Positions 12,095 through 12,562 of a DNA stretch of 64,000 nt are shown here, piece by piece. This stretch comes from Bacteroidia bacterium (lineage in GTDB: Bacteria; Bacteroidota; Bacteroidia; NS11-12g; UBA955), in the NCBI GenBank assembly GCA_965655465.1, contig CBFHGY010000002.1, forward strand, positions 9,982 through 73,981, read 5' to 3'. The notes under the pieces are model-generated. The model searched no databases. It worked only from the letters and a program-made list of their open reading frames with translations, and was not told the origin of the DNA. Position 1 is the first letter of the stretch. Each line of letters begins with the position of its first letter. The translations under genes and the position numbers were made by a program.

Positions 12095-12562
12095 ATGATT
12101 AACGAAGACAATACCTTACAAATTATACAAAACCAAATATTACCATTGGGCTATAAAGCACAATTTATCGAAGAGTTTAATGAGCTTCCCTTTAAAGTAT
12201 TATTGGTTTATCCCTATGAGGAAGACGAAAAACCAGAACTCAAAGATTGGGCCTTGAATTTTACGGTTTTTCCAATGGGAGACGACCTAGACGGATCTGT
12301 TTTTTTGCAGATGTACTGGGAATATAATTTGAAAGTTTCATCTGATAATAGGTCTAAGGTTGCTGAAAAATTGATAGATATCAATTTTCAATTGCCCTTA
12401 GGAAGCCTTGGAATTTCACCGGAAACTGGAAGTATTTATTTCCGCATGGTGATGCCTATTGCGCTGCAAACGGAAATTACTTCCGCTTATATGTCGGATG
12501 TTTTGGATATGGGAATTTATCCGATGGAGACCTTTTTCCCTGAGTTGTCGGCACTTTTGTAA
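12095..12562 (+). CDS. Acidic 155-aa protein, T3SS-chaperone/YbjN-like pattern (candidate chaperone for the upstream protein)
   Basis: The gene starts 10 nt after the 619-aa gene. The protein is strongly acidic (about 24 D/E against 9 K/R by my count). The segment KVAEKLIDINFQLPLGSLGISPETGSIYFRMVMPI resembles the LL..N......g.l.ld.e.g.l.l pattern of CesT/YbjN-type chaperones. This assignment is by eye only. Confidence 0.55.
   Translation: MINEDNTLQIIQNQILPLGYKAQFIEEFNELPFKVLLVYPYEEDEKPELKDWALNFTVFPMGDDLDGSVFLQMYWEYNLKVSSDNRSKVAEKLIDINFQLPLGSLGISPETGSIYFRMVMPIALQTEITSAYMSDVLDMGIYPMETFFPELSALL

Follow-up and report, generated by a model that had tools for sequence, protein, structure and literature searches.

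Little is understood of how contractile injection systems (CIS) load their cargo, and engineering of these machines to deliver proteins is now under way. The only loading factors known so far are a disordered N-terminal signal on the cargo and an AAA+ ATPase. The stretch of DNA analyzed here (herein the window; 64,000 nucleotides) encodes a small acidic protein of 155 residues (P0001) directly behind a candidate cargo gene, and it raises the question of what such a protein does beside an injection machine. The sequence was found in one DNA sample only, a marine plankton metagenome, and the genome to which it belongs is a 2.56-Mb draft that is 89% complete. Gene types that lie nearby in relatives, namely Por_Secre_tail and SusC-like barrels, point to Bacteroidota as its probable phylum. 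The features that matter for the argument are as follows.

1..8524, minus strand: structural operon of a contractile injection system, truncated at the edge of the window (domain matches)
8777..10099, plus strand: AAA+ ATPase of 440 residues, Afp15/Pvc15/Alg15-like by family, size and position (PF00004, 9.3e-27)
10225..12084, plus strand: P0065, 619 residues, probable CIS cargo or effector (build; homologues with eCIS_core)
12095..12562, plus strand: P0001, acidic protein with a predicted YbjN / type III class I chaperone fold, proposed cargo chaperone (Pfam, AF2, Foldseek, pI)

The structural operon comprises, in order, genes for a 119-residue protein, a Pvc16_N cap, a 276-residue protein, the sheath, two gp19 tube proteins and CIS_tube, followed by a VgrG-like spike, a PAAR protein, gp25 and the beginning of a gene for a baseplate protein; it runs on for 10 kb upstream of the window on the same contig (C2). 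Transcribed away from it, the 440-residue ATPase is the first gene of an ATPase-cargo-chaperone module, in which the 619- and 155-residue genes follow on the plus strand ahead of the housekeeping genes lpxB and surE. The ATPase is 41% identical to the AAA+WHD ATPases that adjoin the same module in other genomes; Alg15, its counterpart in AlgoCIS, has 435 residues. No type III secretion genes were seen in the window, and promoter and terminator scans returned nothing above chance. Just beyond surE lies a VapBC-like toxin-antitoxin pair (14959-15861, minus strand), consisting of a PIN-domain gene and, before it, a gene whose domains are DUF6364 and DUF2281.

The P0001 open reading frame begins with ATG, and its opposite strand is rich in stops. 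The protein has a mass of 17.9 kDa and a pI of 4.07, lacks cysteine, and carries 24 acidic residues (10 Asp and 14 Glu) against 9 basic ones (7 Lys and 2 Arg). Because its highest mean Kyte-Doolittle hydropathy over 19 residues is 0.86, neither a signal peptide nor a transmembrane (TM) helix is predicted. Its start lies 10 nt beyond the stop of the 619-residue gene (at 12084). An earlier note on this DNA had described P0001 as a protein of 155 residues with about 24 Asp/Glu against 9 Lys/Arg, without a signal peptide, and encoded by a gene tightly coupled to its 619-residue neighbor; the exact counts, the hydropathy maximum and the short gap bear this description out, and all of its numbers are correct. 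The N terminus is common to P0001 and 12 close homologues (64 to 92% identity), which fixes the start. With a profile built from these close homologues, an exhaustive HMMER search yielded 51 relatives at E ≤ 1e-3; judged by the 12 homologues and 51 relatives, the gene is real. Tests on the family used the 46 full-length sequences among the 51, and all 46 are acidic (pI 4.05 to 5.39). Two residues, N97 and G103, are near-invariant.

Both of these residues lie inside a stretch (approximately residues 88 through 122) that the earlier note had likened to CesT, SycE and YbjN proteins; this stretch falls within the match of P0001 to the Pfam YbjN profile (PF10722), which spans residues 74 through 151 (profile positions 50 through 124 of 126; 21.8 bits, E = 2.4e-4). 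Strict membership of the Pfam family is borderline, the score being 0.2 bits below the gathering score of 22 bits. Among the relatives, 19 of 46 match YbjN at E ≤ 0.01 (best E = 1.9e-9), one matches CesT_Tir_1, and the YbjN match of another (P0020) was graded weak. Searching PDB chains with the P0001 sequence and its alignments produced no meaningful match, and neither P0001 nor the 619-residue protein has a match in NCBIfam or PHROGs.

The AF2 model of P0001 (pLDDT 85, pTM 0.79) is ordered from residue 7 and contains three helices (residues 7 through 18, 86 through 97 and 130 through 154) and six strands (21 through 25, 35 through 39, 52 through 60, 69 through 80, 104 through 107 and 113 through 122) in the order α-β-β-β-β-α-β-β-α. 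This is the α/β arrangement of the solved YbjN members: a helix, an antiparallel sheet, a helix, two strands and a long C-terminal helix. The top Foldseek match in the PDB is Deinococcus DR1245 (4h5b; E = 1.8e-4, TM 0.64 to 0.66), and the proteins that come after it are PA14_16140, AmyR and E. coli YbjN, with the entries 8q8o, 5frk, 6vu7 and 2plg among the top matches. Chaperones of type III class I are interspersed with these: VecA (9ux0, E = 4.3e-3), ExsC (3kxy), SicP (1jyo), CesT (1k3e, 5wez and 5z38), SigE and SycE. For the type III chaperones TM reaches 0.58 with probabilities of 0.96 to 1.0, and the E values to the true members of that group are modest (4e-3 to 6e-2). Nothing in the viral fold library matched P0001 significantly, so that a phage tail-assembly chaperone is not indicated. 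The earlier note had counted an unrelated fold among the grounds for giving up the α/β chaperone idea; the result is the contrary, the best Foldseek matches belonging to the YbjN family and the type III class I group. On the strength of the model, P0001 has a YbjN / type III class I chaperone fold, and it is also of the size (15 to 18 kDa or so), acidity and cytosolic type of the class I chaperones.

The YbjN family (PF10722, clan CL0097; E. coli YbjN, 6vu7; Erwinia AmyR, 5fr7/5frk; Deinococcus DR1245, 4h5b) thus provides the best profile and structure matches of P0001, which shares its element order, length (∼150 residues), acidity and cytosolic character. Known members act in the stress response, exopolysaccharide control or DNA repair and have no injected partner, whereas the P0001 gene is locked to a cargo gene. 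Like the type III class I chaperones (CesT, SicP, SycE, ExsC, VecA), P0001 is small and acidic, has the same predicted fold, and is encoded beside its presumed client and near an ATPase thought to unfold that client. It differs from them in its machine, a phage-tail-like contractile injector, and in the ATPase, which is a classic AAA+ enzyme and not the rotary-type SctN.

The first 113 residues of the neighbor P0065 are of low complexity and have no predicted structure (80% of the first 80 residues are Ala, Gly, Ser, Thr, Pro, Asn or Gln); beyond residue 113 the AF2 model consists entirely of long helices. An acidic stretch spans residues 121 through 160, hydrophobic Gly/Ala-rich segments lie at 309 through 340 and 467 through 499, and the C terminus is basic and highly conserved. 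The model is poor in the first half of the protein (mean pLDDT 52), and a fold search with it against the PDB found nothing significant (best E = 0.034, TM about 0.1); the α-pore-forming toxins AhlB and SmhB appeared only among the weak matches and were not counted as evidence. A match to the MspI endonuclease (15.8 bits) was weak, had nothing else to support it, and was dropped.

In AlgoCIS, the cargo proteins Cgo1 and Cgo2 carry a disordered N-terminal loading region, and loading requires a ∼440-residue ATPase, Alg15 (PMC8894135; bioRxiv 10.64898/2026.05.27.728243). Cargo of that system begins with a disordered N terminus, which may or may not include DUF4157, and continues into a C-terminal domain that varies; Alg15 loads it into the tube lumen. 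AlgoCIS is a machine of the same kind as that of the window (a Bacteroidota-type locus). A DUF4157 domain was not detected in the 619-residue protein of the window; the domain (PF13699 eCIS_core, with its HExxH motif) is present in a P0065 homologue (P0084) and in the partner of the P0001 relative P0020, and the L013 member has the EQEAD motif that usually precedes it. P0065 is therefore a probable cargo or effector of the adjacent injection system, given a disordered N terminus like the AlgoCIS loading sequences and the DUF4157 domains of its homologues. Its build also resembles that of the Streptomyces proteins Tme and Sle1, tape-measure-related CIS effectors that combine disordered parts with long helical or coiled-coil stretches and a hydrophobic helical hairpin (PMC11126660, PMC13277306); no sequence similarity to that system was found.

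The N termini of the 619-residue family are modular: P0084 has a DUF4157 domain with HEAWH, the L013 member has EQEAD, P0085 has the leader-like motif LQLQQSLGNQATLQL, and the window clade has plain low-complexity sequence. A conserved domain of ∼100 residues (VTGVSHLVK...RRGPNQE...WFKV) occurs in four members of the family and is absent from the protein in the window.

Within the window's phylum, 401 genomes were sampled. The Pvc16_N cap gene is found in 68 of them, while the 619-residue family and a strong match to the P0001 family are each confined to the window's genome. With the pair in only 1 of the 68 cap-bearing genomes, we class the pair, like cargo genes, as an accessory cassette outside the core of the machine.

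The gene order is kept in close relatives, in which the ATPase, a gene for a 570- to 619-residue protein, the 155-residue gene and lpxB follow one another; as these genomes share flanking genes, they were counted as a single lineage. Beyond the window clade, a P0065 homologue lies directly upstream of a P0001 relative at four further loci (L010, L013, L020 and L021), and these upstream partners are 30 to 37% identical to P0065 over a C-terminal domain of ∼455 residues (E = 3e-54 to 8e-97). At L010 the ATPase, a 633-residue gene and a 154-residue gene stand together, the last encoding a protein 41% identical to P0001; the housekeeping genes alaS and gidB and a glycosyltransferase gene are inserted between the structural operon and the ATPase. 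At L013, in another phylum, an AAA+WHD ATPase gene, a 778-residue gene and a 154-residue gene lie among housekeeping genes; the genome is probably that of a cyanobacterium, since it has a protochlorophyllide reductase gene. The pairs at L020 and L021 encode proteins of at least 611 and 156 residues and of 733 and 151 residues, respectively.

A search in the reverse direction independently found two distant homologues of P0065, P0084 (814 residues) and P0085 (657 residues). Directly 3′ of their genes are P0001-family genes encoding 153 and 168 residues, respectively (hhalign E = 2.3e-46 and 8.2e-22). The pairing thus held in every context examined, across at least two phyla and in both search directions, at 24 to 41% identity. 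At two loci (L055 and L056) the pair is present with no injection-system genes within 10 kb. [quoted passage not shown] A link between P0001 and a contractile-injection substrate, suggested from the window alone, is supported by this pairing across phyla and by the cargo-like character of the 619-residue neighbor, which is not the tape measure (see below).

Genome G401 has its injection genes scattered over more than 2 Mb, with Pvc16_N at C1:4243982, the sheath gene at C1:3300661 and an ATPase-cargo-chaperone trio at C1:5.28 Mb; its cap gene is isolated, flanked by genes for a histidine kinase and an aldehyde dehydrogenase, and a PF19268 tape measure was not found in this genome. With the injection genes so dispersed, the remote trio is not tied to a cluster by position.

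Genes of the YbjN-like type that are more distant from P0001 also accompany cargo genes outside the 619-residue family. In the phylum of L013, the P0001-family profile matches 23 of 401 genomes, seven of which also have DUF4157 genes; four of these seven have a YbjN-like gene immediately 3′ of a DUF4157 gene and in the same orientation, and in three of the four it is the sole family match in the genome. By a rough estimate, the chance of each such placement is well under 1%. The order at L065 is Pvc16_N cap, AAA+WHD ATPase, DUF4157 protein (855 residues) and YbjN-like protein (185 residues); that at L064 is AAA+WHD ATPase, a 444-residue protein, DUF4157 protein (852 residues) and YbjN-like protein (172 residues). 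At L066, gp25 and PAAR genes are followed by those for a 1303-residue DUF4157 protein, a Tox-GHH nuclease and a 370-residue protein with a YbjN domain. These DUF4157 proteins lie outside the 619-residue family, yet they have coiled-coil regions and C-terminal Gly/Ala-rich hydrophobic hairpins, and hairpins of this type are present in all of the partner proteins. Placement of a P0001-like gene with CIS genes therefore recurs in the window and at L010, L013, L064, L065 and L066.

The only trace of a link between YbjN and extracellular CIS (eCIS) in the literature searched is a line in a supplementary enrichment table, which the main text of that paper does not discuss: pfam10722 is enriched in eCIS operons with an odds ratio of 6.09 (14 genes, two phyla, class “Cloud”), and a Limnospira YbjN gene adjoins afp15/afp16 (Geller 2021, Supplementary Data). 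Our literature search found no paper combining YbjN with contractile injection, nor one combining CesT, chaperone and contractile injection.

Several variants of the fold were observed in passing. A second class of protein, 350 to 390 residues long, joins a C-terminal YbjN domain to an uncharacterized N-terminal half and occurs at injection or DUF4157 loci of the second phylum; the copies at L063:9623-10786 (plus strand) and L066:6477-7589 (minus strand) are acidic and 37% identical to each other, and Limnospira AmaxDRAFT_1266 (Geller 2021, Supplementary Data), directly beside afp15, belongs to this class. The Tox-GHH (HNH/EndoVII) nuclease gene at L066:7634-8401 (minus strand) is free-standing, encodes 255 residues between the 1303-residue DUF4157 protein and the YbjN-domain protein, and may represent a separately encoded cargo. 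P0014 (336 residues, metagenome) carries, on an unrelated N-terminal part of 215 residues, a final 120 residues near-identical to a P0005-type chaperone, and is probably an assembly chimera or a rearrangement. P0062 (557 residues) has a YbjN-like domain at both ends and a hydrophobic and coiled-coil middle, and may be a membrane-anchored double chaperone-fold protein.

Taken as a whole, the predicted fold, the strict reciprocal pairing, the recurrent order of ATPase, cargo and YbjN-like gene, the cargo-like partner and the existence of a separate tape-measure gene lead us to propose that P0001 is a dedicated holdase or loading chaperone of the 619-residue CIS cargo, a reading to which we assign a probability of roughly 55%. 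The broader proposal, that YbjN-fold proteins constitute an unrecognized class of dedicated CIS chaperones that hold membrane-inserting cargo and dock on a Pvc15-like AAA+ loader, is put forward more tentatively and leaves us somewhat doubtful.

The steps of such a mechanism, which we infer by analogy, would be as follows. In the cytoplasm of the producer, P0001, which like its structural relatives is probably dimeric, would bind newly made cargo and cover its hydrophobic helical hairpins, so that the cargo would neither aggregate nor insert into the producer's own membrane and would be kept fit for loading. The Pvc15/Alg15-like AAA+ ATPase would recognize the disordered N-terminal loading region of the cargo, strip off P0001, unfold the cargo and thread it into the tube lumen, and P0001 would stay behind in the producer cell. 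In type III secretion, class I chaperones are released by the ATPase, and in type VI secretion, Eag chaperones shield effector TM domains. The Eag (DUF1795) chaperones for effectors with TM domains were reportedly described by Ahmad and colleagues in 2020. The job proposed for P0001 is the same as theirs: until a contractile-machine effector is loaded, its hydrophobic helices would be covered inside the producer cell; the Eag fold differs from that of P0001, Eag clients ride on VgrG via a PAAR domain, and no homology is claimed.

Several observations weigh against the chaperone reading. Type III class I chaperones bind behind the N-terminal signal of their client, whereas the pairing of P0001 seems to follow the client's C-terminal domain, a pattern that fits an immunity protein equally well. 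The orphan pairs at L055 and L056 count against it, as does the loading of Cgo1 and Cgo2 in AlgoCIS, which proceeds without a known chaperone: none is described at that locus, which has a TPR protein instead and no P0001-type gene. So do the modest Foldseek E values, the sub-cut-off YbjN score, and the roles of YbjN-fold proteins that are unrelated to secretion.

The first of these points leads to the alternative that survives best, namely that P0001 is an immunity protein or antitoxin that neutralizes a toxic, probably membrane-active C-terminal domain of the 619-residue effector and has no part in loading. The P0001 gene follows a toxin-like gene directly and one to one, the two co-evolve through the partner's C-terminal domain rather than its N terminus, and the orphan pairs, far from machine genes, resemble toxin-immunity cassettes. 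Immunity genes for eCIS toxins have been found (Geller 2021), and at L066 the YbjN-domain protein comes after the Tox-GHH nuclease gene. It would be unusual, however, for one family of immunity proteins to follow cargo with unrelated C-terminal domains, as this family of small proteins does. The fold and acidity of P0001 match those of secretion chaperones, and the gene is found repeatedly beside the loading ATPase. The immunity proteins known to us that act against membrane-inserting toxins are membrane or periplasmic proteins, and P0001, soluble and without a signal peptide, is unlike them. We consider the immunity role, taken on its own, unlikely; it and the chaperone role are not mutually exclusive and could coexist.

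A further alternative is that P0001 is an adaptor within the particle, linking the cargo to spike, tube or cap and itself loaded or injected. There is a precedent in Streptomyces, where the spike complex and tape-measure-like effectors are connected by small DUF4157 proteins; Sle1 has a small dedicated partner gene adjoining it, but the partner is a DUF4157 protein and not of the YbjN fold. The strict pairing with the cargo would suit an adaptor. Against this, P0001, ordered from residue 7, lacks the disordered N terminus of a loading region, it shares its fold with chaperones that remain in the cytosol, and it is absent from the other cap-bearing genomes of the phylum sample. An adaptor role thus appears improbable.

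P0001 might also be a YbjN-type protein with a general role in stress or regulation that stands here by an accident of the lineage, as the family is widespread and mostly unlinked to secretion, and some genomes of the second phylum have up to nine paralogues and no DUF4157 gene. Such a reading is strongly disfavored, and we give it very little credence: an accidental position does not agree with a pairing kept at such low identity across phyla and in both search directions, nor with the single family member placed directly after a DUF4157 gene in three genomes. The paralogue-rich genomes of the second phylum are G406, G415, G433, G436 and G442, each with six to nine YbjN-like copies; as they have no DUF4157 gene, the fold has expanded there for uses apart from injection cargo.

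Finally, the idea that P0065 is the tape measure and P0001 its assembly chaperone, in the manner of lambda gpG/gpGT, draws on the long helices of the all-helical P0065, its position beside the ATPase and a size close to that of AlgoCIS Alg14 (537 residues), and is scarcely credible: a close relative's structural operon ends in a 1988-residue PF19268 CIS_TMP protein, PF19268 is also present in the window's genome (contig C42, 122 bits) in a piece that fits the cut 1088-residue ORF ending contig C2, homologues of P0065 bear the DUF4157 cargo marker, the pair is missing from other cap-bearing genomes, and P0065 matches no PHROG tape measure. Given this separate CIS_TMP gene, a tape-measure identity of P0065 was rejected. 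In the draft genome the tape-measure gene is split over contigs C2:1-3264 (L022) and C42:2616-3179. The 1988-residue protein of the close relative is far longer than Alg14, from which one would expect extra domains or a particle of much greater length.

That a predicted secretion-chaperone fold is attached to probable contractile-injection cargo has solid genomic evidence. If P0001 is indeed a dedicated chaperone for hydrophobic cargo, it would be a third loading component, supplying a missing and engineerable step. It could account for the way in which a producer cell keeps membrane-active effectors soluble and harmless, and such a chaperone could be needed for loading cargo of this kind into engineered particles. 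A type III chaperone fold would then be linked to a phage-derived machine. A 2026 review ranks the YbjN family first among the branches of the chaperone clan in breadth of distribution and last in how well it is understood, and for part of that family the chaperone role would provide a first concrete, testable job.
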